A program made the position numbers and the translations under genes. Below are positions 11,368 through 35,639 of a DNA stretch of 64,000 nt, one piece after another. Position 1 is the stretch's first letter. Each line of letters starts with the position of its first letter. The notes beneath the pieces are model-generated. The model saw only the letters and a program-made list of their open reading frames with translations, was not told the origin of the DNA and made no database searches. The DNA comes from an uncultured Acidobacteriota bacterium (GTDB taxonomy: Bacteria; Acidobacteriota; Blastocatellia; RBC074): contig CAWCKY010000007.1 of NCBI GenBank assembly GCA_963796275.1, positions 896,001 to 960,000 of the forward strand, read 5' to 3'.

Positions 11368-11479
11368 GCGGACTGTTACCATGGCCGTCTTCAGCGATAT
11401 TCTGCTCACGGATGCTGATCAGATCTAGTTGGCTTTACATTTTTCGCATACTATTTCCAAACACAAAAAAGGAGGACAC

Positions 11480-12766
11480 ATGCAAATAAAAGACGTGCAA
11501 CATCGACACGACACGCATAGCGCGGTCTCGCGTCGCGGCTTCCTCAAGGGAGCTGCGGCTGTCGCTGCAGCTGGATCAATACCAGTTCTGACACAACGAG
11601 ATCAAGGCCAACACCATGTCGGCTCGGAACATGACAGAATTTTGGCTTATGTCGGCTGCTACACTCCGAATGGCCAGGGCATTTACCTCTTTGAGGTGAA
11701 CCCCGCAAGCGGAAATCTAACGCAAATCAAGGTGTTCCAGGGTACGGACACTCCTCTAGTTTCTACCATGAACCCGTCCTGGCTCGCCTTTGATCCGCAG
11801 AAAAAATATCTTTACGCTGGAAATGAGATCTCAAATTTTGGGGGGACCACGAGTGGCGCGGTAAGCGCGTTTGCCGTCGACCGTTCGAGCGGCGACCTGA
11901 CATTCCTCAATTCGATTAGCTCGCAAGGTTCCGGCCCCGCTCACCTCAGCGTCGACCCGTCCGGGAGATATGTGCTGGTGGCCAATTACGGCGGCGGGAA
12001 CGTGGCTGTCCTGCCCATCCAATCGGACGGATCGTTAGGCAATGCCACGGACGTCAAGAACGACGCCGACGCATGCGCGCCAAGTCCGTGCACCGTGGGC
12101 CCAACGCGCGCTCAAAACGCACCTCCGGGTAGCTTTGCCATCAGCGGCCACGACAGACCTCACGCCCATATGATCCAGACCGACCCAACAGGCAACTTCG
12201 TAATTGTGAGTGATCTGGGACTCGATCTGACGATAATTTGGAAATTCGACAAGGCGGCGGGAACGCTTTCAGATCCCAAGACCTTCCCGACGTCTCCGGG
12301 AGCAGGGCCGCGCCATTTTTCCTTTCACCCCAACGGTCGATGGTTCTACTCGCTCAATGAAGAGGCCTCCACGCTTGATTTCATGATCTACGACGCCAGA
12401 CACGGATCGCTGCAACCTGTAGAAGAAGTTTCGACACTGCCCTCTAAATTCGTCGGCACCAATTTCACTTCAGAAGTGATTGTCTCGCACGACGGAAAAT
12501 TCATCTATGCTGCCAACCGTCTTCACGATACCATCGCTATCTTCGCCGTCGACGGGACGGGGGCGCCGAGGCTGATCGGCGAGGAATGGACGCGGGCGGA
12601 TTATCCGCGCAGCTGCAACATCGATCCGTCGGGGAAATTTCTATTCGTTTGCAATCACAGAGGTGACAGCATCACTACGTTTCGCATCGTAGGAGGTGGG
12701 CGCGGTCTTAAGTTCACAGGCCAATACACTCCAGTAGGCAGCCCGGCTGTGATCGTCTTCCTCTGA
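11480..12766 (+). CDS. Lactonase family protein (6-phosphogluconolactonase YbhE/Pgl-like beta-propeller), Tat-exported
   Basis: AGGAGG RBS before MQIKD; twin-arginine SRRGFLKG; motifs NPSWL, ANYGGG, PHAHM, GAGPRHF, YAANR. Confidence 0.9.
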   Translation: MQIKDVQHRHDTHSAVSRRGFLKGAAAVAAAGSIPVLTQRDQGQHHVGSEHDRILAYVGCYTPNGQGIYLFEVNPASGNLTQIKVFQGTDTPLVSTMNPSWLAFDPQKKYLYAGNEISNFGGTTSGAVSAFAVDRSSGDLTFLNSISSQGSGPAHLSVDPSGRYVLVANYGGGNVAVLPIQSDGSLGNATDVKNDADACAPSPCTVGPTRAQNAPPGSFAISGHDRPHAHMIQTDPTGNFVIVSDLGLDLTIIWKFDKAAGTLSDPKTFPTSPGAGPRHFSFHPNGRWFYSLNEEASTLDFMIYDARHGSLQPVEEVSTLPSKFVGTNFTSEVIVSHDGKFIYAANRLHDTIAIFAVDGTGAPRLIGEEWTRADYPRSCNIDPSGKFLFVCNHRGDSITTFRIVGGGRGLKFTGQYTPVGSPAVIVFL

Positions 12767-12878
12767 AACTGGGCGTGGGTCAGAGAAAGGGAACTGCGTG
12801 GTCACTCACCCGCCACTAAGTCGCTTTGCAACTATAGTGGGGAGATCAGCCATCGATACTGCCGGGTGCTACACAAGG

Positions 12879-13003
12879 CGGATGGCTATGGAGTTAATCG
12901 TGCTAGCGCACGATCTCAAAAATTCCTCCCCATCCAAGCCGCCCAAGATGGCTGCTATGGATGGGGTATCCTTTTGAGGTTTCTGATGAATCGTAGTTAT
13001 TCG
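12879..13003. ncRNA. Unidentified structured RNA/ssDNA element, copy A
   Basis: Homologous to 35520-35639 with compensatory base-pair changes. Hairpin ATCGTG/CACGAT, long stem CCCCATCCA/TGGATGGGG, apical loop CAAGAT. Confidence 0.6.
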
Positions 13004-13277
13004 ATGATCGAGAAGAGAACTGCGCGATGCTCTCGAGGCGACTCTTGCAGCTGGCTCGCCTCCTGAGGGTAAACTACAACCGCGGTCTCGGCCGCAGCCT
13101 TGTCGCTTCACATATCTCCTGCGACTGGATTTGCTCGAACCATCCGCTAGTTACCGCTGTATCACTTGCAGTCGATTATGGAGTTGAGAAGGAGACGCAC
13201 CGAGATATCATATCTAACTAGGAGGGCATCAAACCGTGGGGTAGGCCTCCAACAGGAGTAGATCAGGAATTACAGAT

Positions 13278-15659
13278 ATGCCCGCTAAACATAATCGACT
13301 AATGAAATATCAATTGCTGATCTCGGGGATAGTTATAACCCTTATCGCCTGGGTTATAGGGCAGGATGTTCTACCTGGAACCGCTTCGTTGACTGCGCAG
13401 GGCGATCCCGCAGCCCAGATGCCGGGAACCTCTCCCTTGACAGAGCAAGGCGATCTCGCAGCTCAGATGGTGGGTGGCATAAACGATTATCTCATTCGTG
13501 AATCAGCTCAAGCCGCACGCGACCGCGAGCTCTTCTGGCAACGCGATTTCTCGACGCCGGAAGCATACAATCGCTCGATTGAGCCGAATCGGAGGAATTT
13601 GCGGCGGATTATTGGGGCATTGGATCAAGCAATGCCAGCGAAAGCTCTTGAATTCGAGGCTTCGACAAGGGTGCCGTCGCTCGTCGGGAAAGGAAAAGGC
13701 TATAAGATTCACGCCGTCAGATGGCCGGTATTTCCTGGTGTGTATGCCGAGGGACTGTTTCTCGATCCGGATAGCCCGCCACTGGCGCGAGTTGTCGCAT
13801 TGCCGGACGCGGATTGGCAACCGGAGGCGCTGGCCGGCTTGACGACGGATCTTCCACCGGCGGCTCAGTTCGCCCGGCGCCTTGCTGAGAACCGTTGTCA
13901 GGTGTTGGTACCCGTGCTGATCGACCGGAAGGATACCTGGTCCGGCATCCCCGTATTCCGCATGACTAACCAGCCTCACCGCGAATGGATATATCGCATG
14001 TCTTTCGAGGTAGGCCGGCACATTATCGGGTACGAAGTCGAGAAGGTGCGCGCGGCGGTGGACTGGTTCTCCAGCGAAAACGTGAGTCGACCCGCGCCAA
14101 TCGTAGTTGTCGGCTACGGCGAGGGAGGGCTTGTCGCGTTCTATACTGCCGCGTTTGACAGACGTATCGCCGCGGTGTTGGTGAGCGGATATTTCCAGCC
14201 GCGCGAGCAATTGTGGAAAGAGCCGATCTATCGCGATGTGTGGGCACTGCTTCGCGAATTTGGCGATGCGGAGATAGCGAGCATGATTGCGCCGCGCGGA
14301 CTCGTGGTGGAAGCGAGCACCATCCCCAAAGTGATCGGACCGCCATCTGCGACGCAGCAGCGGCGAGGCGCCACTCCGAATGGTGCGCTGACCACGCCGG
14401 CATTCGAAGATGTGCGAGCCGAGGTGGAGCGTGCGCGGCCTGTTTTCACCAGCCTGAATCGTTCCGAGAATTTGAAGCTGATCCCGGTTGGCGATGAAGC
14501 AGGATTGCCGGGCACGGACGCTGCCCTCTCGGCTGTGCTGAGTCTGGCCGGGGTCAAGCAGAGATTCGCCGCTCCAGCGCCCCCGCCGGAGAACCTACGC
14601 TCCAACTTCGATCCATCCGAACGGATGCACCGGCAATTCGATCAACTCGTCGAGCACACGCAGCGGCTCGTCCGTCTGTCTCCCGCGCGCAGAACGGAGT
14701 TCTGGGCGAAAGCCGACGCCACCTCGCCCGAGAGTTGGAAGGCATCCACCGACTTTTACCGCGATTACATCTGGAATGAGGTGATCGGCCGGATGCCGAC
14801 GCCGAATGTCCCGGCCAATCCGCGCACCCGACTAATCTATGACCAGCCGAAATTCCGCGGATACGAAGTAATGCTGGATGTCTGGTCTGGCGTGTTTGCC
14901 TACGGAATTATCCTCATCCCCAAAGATATTCGACCCGGCGAAAATCGCCCCGTGGTGGTCTGTCAGCATGGGTTGGAAGATCGGCCGACCCGGCTCACAG
15001 ACCCAGATGTAGACAACCCCACCTATCATCGGTTCGCCGTCCGGCTGGCTGAAGAAGGGTTCGTCGTCTACGCACCGCAGAATCCGTATATCGGCCAGGA
15101 CCGCTTCCGGATCATCCAGCGCAAAGCGCATCCGCTGAAACTATCACTCTTCTCGTTCATTATCGGGCAACACCAGCGCACACTCGAATGGTTGTCGAGC
15201 CTTCCGTTCGTAGATCCGGGGCGTATCGGTTTTTACGGCCTGTCTTACGGTGGTAAGACAGCGATGCGCGTTCCTCCATTGCTGGACGGATATGCGCTCT
15301 CCATCTGCTCGGCCGATTTCAACGAATGGGTCTGGAAGAACACGAGTATCGACTCCGGCTATAGCTATCTGCTAACCCAGGAATACGACATGATCGAGTT
15401 CGATTTCGCCAATGTCGTCAATTACAGTGATCTCGCCAATCTCATGGCGCCGCGGCCGTTCATGGTGGAGCGCGGGCATGGCGATGGGGTAGCATCGGAT
15501 GAATGGGTCGCCTACGAATACGCCAAGGTGCGGCGGTTCTATGAAACAAAGATGCGCCTGCCGGACCACACCGAGATGGAAGTCTTCGACGGGCCACACT
15601 CTATCAATGGCCAGGGAACGTTCGCGTTTCTCAGGAAGCATCTTCGCCGACCCAAATGA
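13278..15659 (+). CDS. Secreted double alpha/beta-hydrolase (dienelactone hydrolase / carbohydrate esterase-like)
   Basis: 793 aa with N-terminal hydrophobic segment. Two hydrolase domains: degenerate GYGEGG and intact GLSYGG. Short N-terminal repeat LTAQGDPAAQM/LTEQGDLAAQM. Confidence 0.8.
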   Translation: MPAKHNRLMKYQLLISGIVITLIAWVIGQDVLPGTASLTAQGDPAAQMPGTSPLTEQGDLAAQMVGGINDYLIRESAQAARDRELFWQRDFSTPEAYNRSIEPNRRNLRRIIGALDQAMPAKALEFEASTRVPSLVGKGKGYKIHAVRWPVFPGVYAEGLFLDPDSPPLARVVALPDADWQPEALAGLTTDLPPAAQFARRLAENRCQVLVPVLIDRKDTWSGIPVFRMTNQPHREWIYRMSFEVGRHIIGYEVEKVRAAVDWFSSENVSRPAPIVVVGYGEGGLVAFYTAAFDRRIAAVLVSGYFQPREQLWKEPIYRDVWALLREFGDAEIASMIAPRGLVVEASTIPKVIGPPSATQQRRGATPNGALTTPAFEDVRAEVERARPVFTSLNRSENLKLIPVGDEAGLPGTDAALSAVLSLAGVKQRFAAPAPPPENLRSNFDPSERMHRQFDQLVEHTQRLVRLSPARRTEFWAKADATSPESWKASTDFYRDYIWNEVIGRMPTPNVPANPRTRLIYDQPKFRGYEVMLDVWSGVFAYGIILIPKDIRPGENRPVVVCQHGLEDRPTRLTDPDVDNPTYHRFAVRLAEEGFVVYAPQNPYIGQDRFRIIQRKAHPLKLSLFSFIIGQHQRTLEWLSSLPFVDPGRIGFYGLSYGGKTAMRVPPLLDGYALSICSADFNEWVWKNTSIDSGYSYLLTQEYDMIEFDFANVVNYSDLANLMAPRPFMVERGHGDGVASDEWVAYEYAKVRRFYETKMRLPDHTEMEVFDGPHSINGQGTFAFLRKHLRRPK

Positions 15660-32187: not shown

Positions 32188-34924
32188 ATGCGTATTGAAC
32201 GCTGGTTTTACACCATCCCATTGCGGTTACGCTCGCTGTTCCGCCGTTCCCAGGTGGAGCAGGAACTGGACGAGGAACTCAGCTATCACCTCGATCGACA
32301 AATTGAAGAACACATCGCCAAAGGCATGACGCCGGAAGAGGCGCGCTATGCCGCAATGCGCGCCCTGGGTGGCGTCGAGCAGCGGAAGGAGGAGTGCCGC
32401 GACGCTCGTGGAGTGCTGTGGCTTGAATATCTGTGGCAGGACCTGCGCTACGGCATTCGGATGCTGGTGAAGAATCCCGGCTTCACACTCACAGCTGCTA
32501 TCTCATTGTCGGTAGGAATCGGAGTTAACTCCACCGTATTTGGTTTCGTCAACGCGATCTTATTCAAGTCAATTTCTGTTTCTAACAGCGAGGGGCTGGT
32601 CTACGTTTTTGCAGGTGATCGCCGCAACCTGTATAGATCCTGCTCTTACCATAACGACATGCAATTTCGCGAACAGAATGACGTTTTTTCCGGGTTGGCG
32701 GCTTACGCGGCGCCGCCTATGTTGATGACAACCGGTGAGCAGACCAAAGAAATAAGCTCAGAGGTAGTAACCGGAAACTACTTCTCTGTTTTTGACGTCC
32801 CGATGCAGCGAGGACGAGCATTTACGGCTGCTCACGATCAATTGTCGTTCACTGAGCTCAACGCCGTGATTAGCGATAATTTCTGGAAACGGCGTTTCAA
32901 CTCGGATCCGGACATAGTCGGCAAACAACTGATCCTCAACGGCAACAGGTTCTTCGTTATCGGGATCGCTTCGCCTGTGTTTACCGGTACTGACCCCACG
33001 AATATAACGGACATCTGGGTTCCCGTCACCCAATGGGCCACAATAGTTCCAAAGGTAGTCGCTGCACCAACCGTCGGACCATCTCCTCAAACAACCGGCG
33101 CCGCGCAACCCAACAACGCAGCCACAGCCCCGCAGGCACAGGACAATGGCAGACTTAGTCGCAGTCAGAATTGGTTGCAAATGGTCGGGCGCCTGAAACC
33201 GGGTGTTTCTCTAGAACAGGCCCAAGTAGTGATGACGTTGATCGCCAGCCGTTTGCAGGACTCCAATACAGCCGCGGACGAACAATATAGAATAACTCTT
33301 TCGTCAGTGACCGCGGTCCATCCTGAAATTCTTCACCAGGTAATTCCGGACGTGTTATTCGTGATGGCAGTAACAAGCCTCATTCTTATGATCTGTTGCG
33401 TCAACGTGTCCAGTCTGATGTTGTCGCGCGCGGTCGCTCGCCAGAAAGAGTTTGCAATCCGTATCGCCCTTGGCAGCAGTAGGCAGCGGCTCATTCGGCA
33501 ATTGTTAACCGAAGCCATGGTCCCTCTCACTCCTGGGCGGCATTCTCGGACTCGTGTTTGCTTATTGGACCACTCGCGCTGTACTCGGATTTATACCTCC
33601 TGGCGATCTCGGTCTTTCCGCTGGAGTCGCCCTAGATCAGCGAGTGCTCTGGTATTCGCTGGTGATCTCGGTGGTGACTGGTCTCCTCTCCGGATTGCCT
33701 CCCGCGTTGCATAGCTTTCGACCAAATCTTGTGCAATCGCTCGGAGCCGCAACCATGTCGAGCCGCAGCGGAAGGAGAAAGATCAACCTGCGGCGTGTGC
33801 TGGTGGTCATACAGATCGTCGCCTCTTTGGTTTTGTTGATTTCGACGGGACTATTCCTGCGCAGCTTTCAGGAAGGGCAGTCGATTAGCAAGAACTTCCT
33901 GAGCGACAAGATTTTGCTCCTCAACCTCAGTCCGGGTTACGGCTACTCCGTAAAATACAACAAGGCGTTTTACAGGCAGTTACTCGCCAGAATCGGCGCG
34001 ACACCGGGCGTGGAGTCGGTAACGTTGTCGAATGTACTACCGTTGACGATGTACAAGGACAACGTCTGGGTCAGCGTCGAAGGAAGAGAATCGAAAGACC
34101 TGCAGCGTGCAATCGTTGCGGAAAACTATTTTCAGACTCTTAAGATTCCGATTGTTCGTGGCCGGGAGTTTGACGCTTCTGATGACGGAGCTGCGAGCCG
34201 CGTAGTAATAATCAACGAAGCGATGGCTCGCACCTACTGGCCTGACGAGAATCCGCTCGGCAAAGTGATCGATATGGCGGGCAAGCCGTACGAGGTCATT
34301 GGAGTTGCGAAGGACAGTCCTTACAGTAGCTTCGGGAAAAGTTCAGAGCCATTTCTTTACTCCTGGCTTTATCAACGTCCCGACGAGAATGTTTCGTTGA
34401 TTGTTCGCACGTCTGGTCAACCTACAAGCATGATCGGTACAGTCCAGCGAGAGCTGAAGGAGCTCGGAGGAAACCTGCCGATATTCGATTTTAAGACTCT
34501 CAACGACGTGTCCAACTCTCAGCTCGTTCCCGTTAAAGCGGCTGTGGCTCTACTAAGCTTGCTCAGTTTAATCGGGCTGATCGTGGCGTCGATAGGAATT
34601 TACGGCGTTACCTCTTATGCCTACAACCAGCGGCGACGCGAGATCGGTATTCGCATGTCGCTGGGAGCGCAGCGCACCGATATCTTGCGACTGATTATGA
34701 AAGAAGGTGTGAGCCTGGCACTCGTGGGTATCGGAATCGGAGTGTTGCTGGCTTTGGGCACCACGCATTTAGTGTCGCGGATCCTCTATGGTGTCAGCCC
34801 GGTTGATCCAATCGTGTTTATCGTGGTATCGGCACTGCTCGCCGCGGTGGCGATCGGGGCGAGTTTGGTCCCCGCCCTCACGGCAGCGAAGTCGAATCCG
34901 GTAGAGCTGCTTAGATACGAATAA
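32188..34924 (+). CDS. ADOP-family ABC permease, split by one frameshift near 33523
   Basis: ELDEELSYHL...KEECRDARG...QDLRYGIRML; C-terminus NPVELLRYE. Removing one C from GTCCCTCTC restores EAMVLSLLGGILG. Confidence 0.88.
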
Positions 34925-35255: not shown

Positions 35256-35519
35256 GGCCTAGAGTGTCAAGGAGAGATTGAACGGATGGTCGATATGCTA
35301 ACAATTTAGAATGGAAAAAGATGTCGCATAGGTGTTTCGTTCCGGTCAGGACCATGGGCAACGTACAAATTCCCTTTGACACTCCAGCCCCTATTTATTG
35401 TACATGTGGAGAGAGCAACCGAAGGTCTTAGCAAGTTGGGCCGCCTGCTGGTCAGTGGGGTAGAATTTATATTTGAATGCCTTCTGCACTACAAAAATAT
35501 TTTATCTCACATAGATGCT

Positions 35520-35639
35520 GTGGTAAGGCCCGTTAATCGTGGACGAAGCGCTCACGATGCGAAATTTATCTCCATCCAAGCTCGCCAAGATGCTTGCTAT
35601 GGATGGAGCATTCTTTCGCGGATTTTGATAAATTGTCAC
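35520..35639. ncRNA. Unidentified structured RNA/ssDNA element, copy B
   Basis: Homologous to 12879-13003. ATCGTG/CACGAT hairpin, stems GCGAAA/TTTCGC and CTCCATCCA/TGGATGGAG, loop CAAGAT. Confidence 0.6.

Follow-up and report, generated by a model that had tools for sequence, protein, structure and literature searches.

IS608 of Helicobacter pylori is the structural paradigm for the transposase TnpA, with TTAC recognised by the guide AAAG at the foot of a hairpin, and the end of IS608 is shorter than the conserved region of about 100 nt described here. In IS608 and in the elements of this study alike, the subterminal hairpin belongs to the top strand and the 4 nt directly 5' of its foot form the guide that reads, or here would read, the flanking cleavage motif. 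The pairing rule found here (guide base 1 with motif base 2 and guide base 4 with motif base 4) also fits the TTAC/AAAG pair of IS608. What sets the left end (LE) studied here apart is its span of about 100 nt, an additional helix (P2) that encloses the main hairpin, and the presence of a second hairpin (P1); it is known from sequence and predicted fold.

A set of elements of similar organization, ISGst1-5, has been described in Geobacillus stearothermophilus. The preprint on them (Meers et al., bioRxiv 10.1101/2023.03.14.532601) states, in the excerpted text, that IS200/IS605 elements read the flanking motif with a short stretch of guide DNA at the foot of the hairpin, that the HEARO region, which lies upstream of iscB, has the transposon RE as its boundary, and that TTCAT and TTTAT are the LE-adjacent target motifs (TAMs) of the IscB (ISGst5) and TnpB2 (ISGst2) of that host. 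As far as this excerpt extends, ISGst1-5 and the present elements have in common that similar ends recur across IscB-bearing, TnpB-bearing, TnpA-bearing and gene-less types in one genome, that HEARO/ωRNA lies upstream of iscB and is RE-bounded, that TTCAT (IscB) and TTTAT (TnpB) TAMs adjoin LE, that TAM and guide covary, and that most copies are without tnpA; the likeness described here is one of layout and motifs. Measured against the same excerpt, the present elements differ in their host lineage, in one TnpB-type subfamily that also uses TTCAT, in the larger number of motif variants in relatives (TTCAC, TTCAA and TTTAC) and in a cognate TnpA that survives only as a remnant in this genome. 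HEARO RNA (RF02033) is itself represented, by five full HEAROs in the genome and by the first 42 nt of HEARO, with which one of the copies treated below starts. REP/REPIN sequences with their RAYT transposase are, like the present repeats, short, palindromic, multi-copy, intergenic DNA of a kind moved by a Y1 HUH enzyme, and differ in that the repeats here are the ends of iscB/tnpB-carrying elements with distinct LE and RE.

The DNA analysed here, termed the window, is a stretch of 64,000 nt from a genome (G000) of 9.46 Mb in seven contigs that is 94.7% complete. An earlier note had described in it a structured element present twice, and had offered it chiefly as an unknown new noncoding RNA or cis-regulatory motif and, thirdly, as an ssDNA recombination hairpin. 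Both copies, A (12879-13003) and B (35520-35639), were recovered, and a 35-nt core pattern with five Ns has exactly two matches in the window versus none in 100 shuffles. The third reading proved right in kind. We are highly confident that the element, on the complementary strand, is the LE of related IS200/IS605-family insertion sequences, including PATE-like and truncated derivatives, and specifically the subterminal hairpin region of the transposon end. Its membership in insertion sequences, its boundaries, its gene partners and the covariation both within the hairpin and between guide and motif are all observed in these genomes. The headline of a new RNA or regulatory motif was not borne out: the element sits in insertion sequences, is multi-copy and patchy, and has no consistent downstream gene. 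It is also distinct from HEARO, lying at the opposite transposon end and matching no Rfam family. The whole window gave no Rfam match at the gathering threshold, and copy A at E ≤ 10 gave chance-level matches only (SNORD86, E = 0.24; RAGATH-10, E = 0.43). The kind of object is known, and the family may so far be unnamed in this lineage.

Copies A and B have in common a small hairpin and a long hairpin with a CAAGAT loop. The compensatory differences reported between them are present (CTCAAAA/TTTTGAG versus GCGAAA/TTTCGC, and CCCCATCCA/TGGATGGGG versus CTCCATCCA/TGGATGGAG), as is the pair swap beneath the CAAGAT loop. With its closing stem of 12-13 bp included, copy A folds at -54.6 kcal/mol (z = -6.3); on the + strand the fold of copy B reaches z = -1.7 only. 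Copy A does fold into the three-way junction that had been claimed for it, but the 3' half of the stem (12991-13003) is host flank outside the repeat. The junction was rejected as a feature of the element, with unrelated sequence at this position in four of four sister copies, and by this comparison it is a chance property of one copy. Likewise, each of the two copies is indeed followed, on the same strand, by a hydrolase-fold gene (starting at 13278 for copy A and 35756 for copy B), but other copies precede unrelated or convergent genes, and the association was rejected as coincidence.

The features of copy A are as follows; the minus strand of the window corresponds to the top strand of the IS, which puts LE on the high-coordinate side and RE on the low-coordinate side.

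12801..12985, minus strand: all of copy A, an IscB-type IS200/IS605 element reduced by internal deletion to a gene-less, PATE-like derivative
12801..12842, plus strand: what is left of RE, 42 nt from the start of the HEARO/ωRNA scaffold (GTCAC...TAGTGGGG), holding the RE hairpin
12843..12985, minus strand: LE segment, containing the element of the earlier note; homology to other copies stops at about 12990
12897..12914, minus strand: inner small hairpin P1, ATCGTGC-TAGC-GCACGAT
12915..12978 (12915-12921 with 12972-12978), minus strand: outer helix P2, enclosing the guide loop and P3/P4
12928..12966, minus strand: main imperfect palindrome P3/P4, with the CAAGAT loop on the plus strand; presumed TnpA-bound LE hairpin
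12967..12970, minus strand: presumed LE DNA guide, GATA on the top strand (TATC on plus), the 4 nt 5' of the hairpin foot; identical with the conserved internal loop
12986..12990, minus strand: target motif (TAM), TTCAT on the IS top strand, which is ATGAA on the window plus strand
12991..13003, no strand assigned: 3' half of the closing stem, host flank past the TAM; not kept in four sister copies

In a BLAST of a full IS of 1645 bp, from contig C2, against its own genome, C7:908801-908842 in copy A corresponds to IS positions -1546..-1505 (95%) and C7:908841-908990 to IS positions -53..+95 (94.7%). Copy A thus matches only the two tips of the full IS, the 42 nt of the HEARO end and about 145-150 nt of LE (150 nt at 12841-12990, TAM included), some 190 bp in total. 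As in a PATE, both transposon tips are kept and there is no protein-coding gene. The HEARO remnant of 42 nt is too short for a working ωRNA.

Copy B, on the same strand, consists of the following features.

35397..35627, minus strand: all of copy B, the LE part of a TnpB-type IS200/IS605 element that breaks off inside tnpB
35394..35492, minus strand: tnpB 5' remnant, 33 codons (VVQKAFKYKFYPTDQQAAQLAKTFGCSLHMYNK) and then a stop
35571..35608, minus strand: main LE hairpin, with the guide adjoining at 35609-35612
35628..35632, minus strand: TAM, TTTAT on the top strand (ATAAA on plus)

Copy B is 90.4% identical over 240 nt to C4:75674-75913 and 83.9% identical to C2:357019-356784, and upstream of 35397 there is no homology between copy B and its relatives. 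The ORF on C4 that is homologous to the tnpB remnant matches Pfam HTH_OrfB_IS605 (3.6e-19) and OrfB_IS605. The guide of copy B is AATG, versus AATA in its nearest relatives, and is mismatched to its own TTTAT motif, which we take as a sign of decay. Upstream of copy B, window positions 32188-34924 hold two adjacent, slightly overlapping ORFs (508 and 456 amino acids), each with a MacB periplasmic core and an FtsX permease domain. A lactonase-family gene with a TAT signal lies at 11429-12766.

The element is not confined to the two copies that had been noted. BLAST of copy A against its own genome found 20 places, and an iterated nhmmer search gave 30 matches, equivalent to about 28 loci after overlapping matches on both strands were merged. 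The family alignment resolves into five subfamilies, and the copies are dispersed tens of kilobases apart in mixed orientation. When the ±1 kb flanks were compared all against all by BLAST, homology always stopped at model position ~95-103 on the 3' side; upstream, within subfamilies, it extends over 6 to 711 nt. The 3' flanks are unrelated even between copies that are up to 96% identical. A homology edge that stays fixed on one side, as it does here, marks the tip of a mobile element.

The genes on the inner side of this edge identify the element. In three members of the copy-A subfamily, a same-strand ORF starting MQVAVIDQNRRPLAPT precedes it. One of them is a full copy on the minus strand (G000:C2:296570-298214, locus L002), in which 1645 bp comprise a HEARO ωRNA, iscB and then the element, with both edges sharp. 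The ORF of the full copy, 444 amino acids long and reading into the element, has Pfam RRXRR (6.5e-68) and HNH domains and is an IscB; with its HEARO ωRNA, this IscB element appears to be intact, judging from its sequence. The gathering score of HEARO is 83; the genome-wide search gave 108.8 bits over model positions 1-211, and locus L002, cut on its 5' side, gave 97.7 bits. The earlier note had named a strong Rfam or IS match as what would overturn its proposal, and in substance the HEARO score of 108.8 bits and the IscB ORF of the full copy are such a match. In each of the five full HEARO matches of the genome, model position 1 falls on the opposite boundary of the IS. The HEARO side is RE, and the iscB-distal tip, which holds the element on the complementary strand, is therefore LE. 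Further deletion derivatives of the IscB element keep 338+167 nt and 498+445 nt. The iscB frame of the full copy passes through the LE hairpin, which encodes about its last 27 codons, and its stop is the TGA inside TTTTGAGG. A second copy of the IscB element (C2:23079-24464) is without LE.

The other subfamilies adjoin different genes of the same group. In the copy-B subfamily, TnpB fragments (HTH_OrfB_IS605, 3.6e-19; OrfB_IS605, 3.8e-31) are found on the other strand, with their start some 42 nt away from the element, and in a third subfamily a full TnpB of 402 amino acids (Cas12f1-like_TNB, 2.8e-21) starts just inside the element, again on the opposite strand (C6:2822628). A broken Y1 transposase adjoins the element in a fourth subfamily, as the TnpA remnant beside C6:2593496. 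In the relative G005 an intact TnpA of 140 amino acids (Y1_Tnp, 3.1e-40) reads towards the element, with tnpB divergent. The element is thus physically contiguous with IS200/IS605 genes (Y1 TnpA, TnpB and IscB) in consistent orientation. It is a subterminal imperfect palindrome, and the full element does not end in inverted repeats; the likeness of the LE and RE hairpins is weak (local score 27 versus 16.5 ± 3.0 in shuffles, maximum 32).

The bases just outside the element are GATGAA or GATAAA on the strand of the earlier note, that is, TTCAT or TTTAT on the transposon top strand. Among 35 copies (28 from the window's genome and seven from relatives), 32 have a readable tail and three are truncated; the motifs are TTCAT in 12, TTTAT in ten, ATCAT in five, of which at least two are register errors of the search pattern, GTTAT in four and ATAAT in one, the last ten being counted as one-base variants. 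Guide and motif were tabulated in 53 copies from 14 genomes (24 copies from the window's genome and 29 from 13 others) by setting the four top-strand bases directly 5' of the P3 hairpin against the last four motif bases. The pairs that obey the pairing rule are as follows.

guide AATA, motif TTAT: 20 copies
guide GATA, motif TCAT: 12 copies
guide GATG, motif TCAC: 4 copies
guide GATT, motif TCAA: 2 copies
guide AATG, motif TTAC: 1 copy

In 39 of the 53 copies the first base of the guide complements the second base of the motif and the fourth complements the fourth, with five combinations among them. The 14 copies that break the rule include arm-parsing failures, small deletions and true point mutants, among them copy B with AATG beside TTTAT. 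This covariation is, among the sequence evidence, the strongest single argument for a TnpA DNA-guide mechanism, and a guide role would explain the conserved internal loop that had drawn attention in the earlier note. The relatives G051, G069 and G080 (loci L052-L054, L062-L064 and L071-L073) carry TTCAC with GATG, TTCAA with GATT and TTTAC with AATG. The five guide/motif pairs form a clean natural series that illustrates how DNA encodes the target choice of TnpA.

The helices themselves covary. Run on an ordinary MAFFT alignment, RNAalifold found the P3/P4 helix and no other, since P1 and P2 are both misaligned there. A covariance model was therefore built from ten well-aligned copies and used to align 29 (23 from the window's genome and six from three relatives). 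In this alignment 92.1% of 787 cells are paired and both sides change in 15 of 28 pairs; given the relatedness of the copies and an alignment fitted to the model, these figures overstate independence and favour the structure. Both sides have changed in seven of seven pairs of P1 and in four of seven pairs of P2, and one P3/P4 pair carries three pair types across copies (GC in 14, CG in nine and AU in six). None of 500 shuffles reached the observed values, except for further pair types (3/500), and sliding the partners by 1-3 columns lowered pairing to 33-44%. The wobble cells are balanced, with 21 G·T versus 25 A·C, as expected for a DNA hairpin without an RNA strand preference; a recurrent C·A pair (nine cells) would be T·G on the transposon top strand. 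This balance accounts for the doubt about the strand that the earlier note had expressed, and a strand call from wobble pairs was dropped.

By analogy with characterized members of the group, these elements would move as single-stranded DNA through the Y1 (HUH) transposase TnpA. TnpA would bind the imperfect subterminal hairpin of the top strand, here P3/P4. Base contacts with the guide at the hairpin foot would direct it to its site of cleavage and insertion, which is a 5-nt motif next to LE. The conserved internal loop would then hold the DNA guide, and the sharp 3' edge of the repeat would be the transposon boundary beside TTCAT or TTTAT. The compensatory changes would arise because the hairpin must form in ssDNA. 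Binding by TnpA, folding of the single strand, and mobility at present or in the past are all extended to this family from those members, and precise insertion beside the motif would likewise be expected; a search for empty sites in two same-genus genomes found no alignable orthologous locus. The conserved LE region, about 100 nt with two hairpins, may in part have another role.

One coincidence bears on how the element sits in its host. TTCAT is the reverse complement of ATGAA, and in TTCAT-type copies the 3' arm of P2 (TTTTGAG in copy A) continues on the + strand into GAGG, with an ATG 5-6 nt further on. Among the 15 copies with a TTTTGAGG tail, ten have an ATG, within the motif or overlapping it, that opens an ORF of 95 codons or more, and for eight of these ten Pfam confirms that the frame belongs to a gene (SDR, GT2, glyoxalase, α/β-hydrolase, Phd antitoxin, DUF6351, FecR/DUF6600 and PD40). 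The Pfam domain in these eight starts at residue 1-7, after a signal peptide or deeper in the protein, and in the PD40 case the start is shifted by two bases. In a ninth copy a Pfam-supported cupin frame begins 7 nt further on, and a tenth has no Pfam match. The ATG at the motif of copy A opens an ORF of 26 codons only (12986-13066). The single same-genus copy, in G002, likewise precedes an ORF of 387 codons, the start of which resembles a signal peptide. Other motif types in relatives (GTGAA and TTGAA) are followed by no consistent long ORFs (at least 100 codons in three of eight), and motif types without ATG have no start-codon pattern. Against a null of 22-25% of ATGAA sites in a comparable position, itself crude and derived from ORF-based gene calls, P is 0.008-0.019 for 8/15 and 0.0003-0.0009 for 10/15. 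The excess of TTCAT-type copies at host starts is suggestive, though founded on rough gene calls and subject to survivor bias.

This arrangement, together with the covarying helices, is what a cis-regulatory leader RNA would look like, riboswitch- or thermometer-like, in which P2 sequesters the Shine-Dalgarno GAGG of the next gene. We consider such an RNA very unlikely: the same sequence forms the tip of iscB, tnpB and tnpA elements, copies of up to 96% identity have non-homologous flanks, and TTTAT-type copies, copy B included, are without GAGG or ATG and often face convergent genes. The downstream genes (SDR, GT2, glyoxalase, hydrolase, Phd antitoxin, cupin, DUF6351, FecR and PD40) are mutually unrelated, and there is neither an Rfam match nor a strand bias of the RNA type. 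With the element read as a transposon LE, a tentative and rather improbable proposal can still be made for the start codons, namely that the TTCAT-type LE has evolved into a portable translation-initiation region, which lands before host start codons and supplies the GAGG Shine-Dalgarno. The TGA stop of iscB within TTTTGAGG overlaps GAGG, and the host gene could then be co-transcribed with iscB and translationally coupled to it rather than knocked out, with the folding of P2 modulating its translation. If so, an IS200/IS605 element would have a way of entering gene starts that costs the host little, or of capturing host-gene expression. The excess at host start codons is in any case a testable hint as to how such elements limit insertion damage. 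In the titles and opening lines of abstracts on TTCAT and IS605 left ends, among the matches listed, insertion at start codons is not addressed, and the observation may be new.

The sharp 3' edge followed by variable sequence, in a strongly structured element, is also the geometry of a TnpB ωRNA, and the element could on this ground be a guide-RNA scaffold reading out of the transposon into the flank. This is still less probable than a leader RNA: the ωRNA of the IscB element (HEARO) sits at the opposite end, in TnpB elements the repeat lies 5' of tnpB on the opposite strand and not at the tnpB 3' end, and the first bases of the flank are a fixed motif rather than a variable guide. Equally improbable is another kind of ssDNA recombination site, either an integron attC or a REP/REPIN mobilized by a RAYT transposase. 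Such sites are imperfect palindromes with bulged bases, multi-copy and mostly intergenic like the present repeat, and the ORF beginning directly after the site recalls gene cassettes, but the dispersed copies of mixed orientation form no cassette arrays, no GTTRRRY/RYYYAAC pair was found by inspection, and copies are physically linked to iscB, tnpB and tnpA, while HEARO bounds the opposite end. A group II intron domain V/VI, suggested by shape, was rejected with no Rfam intron match. The correction is of some general value, in that a convincing covarying structured RNA turned out to be a transposon end. Covariation alone cannot tell RNA structure from ssDNA hairpins, and copy number, boundary sharpness and neighbouring genes are the first checks for such repeats.

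Beyond its own genome, the LE of these insertion sequences was found by model search (E ≤ 1e-6) in 13 of 86 other genomes of the same family, and in seven of 17 genera including that of the window; 16 genomes from six other families of the class gave no match. These sets are samples, and many of the genomes are incomplete. Copy number ranges from 1 to 26 per genome, with many copies at contig ends. In G069, G078 and G080, many copies lie about 35 nt from a contig start (e.g. G069:C273:35-140, C270:35-140 and C68:36-140). The repeat evidently breaks assemblies, so that copy numbers in draft genomes are underestimates.

In the window's genome, matches to the relevant gene families occur at three places for RRXRR, five for HEARO, three for OrfB_IS605, 11 for the TnpB zinc-ribbon domain and nine for Y1_Tnp. 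This assembly holds no intact cognate TnpA of the G005 type, only two broken remnants, at C6:2593607-2593891 (65% identity to residues 41-134 of the G005 protein) and C2:165999-166225. The other Y1 genes are at most 26% identical to the G005 TnpA, and tnpB of the copy-B type is represented by fragments only. From these remains the family looks largely decayed in this 94.7%-complete assembly and is probably no longer autonomous in this genome.

A fold-back mini-element of about 88 bp was also observed (G000:C2:48056-48143, L012), with a similar one at G000:C6:1790208-1790268 (L025). It is a single hairpin with a TTCAT-type LE tip on one side and the reverse complement of a TTTAT-type LE tip on the other, and with two opposed tips it matches the model on both strands and forms a near-perfect long hairpin (-42.4 kcal/mol). 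Template switching at a hairpin and an aberrant TnpA event are both possible origins.
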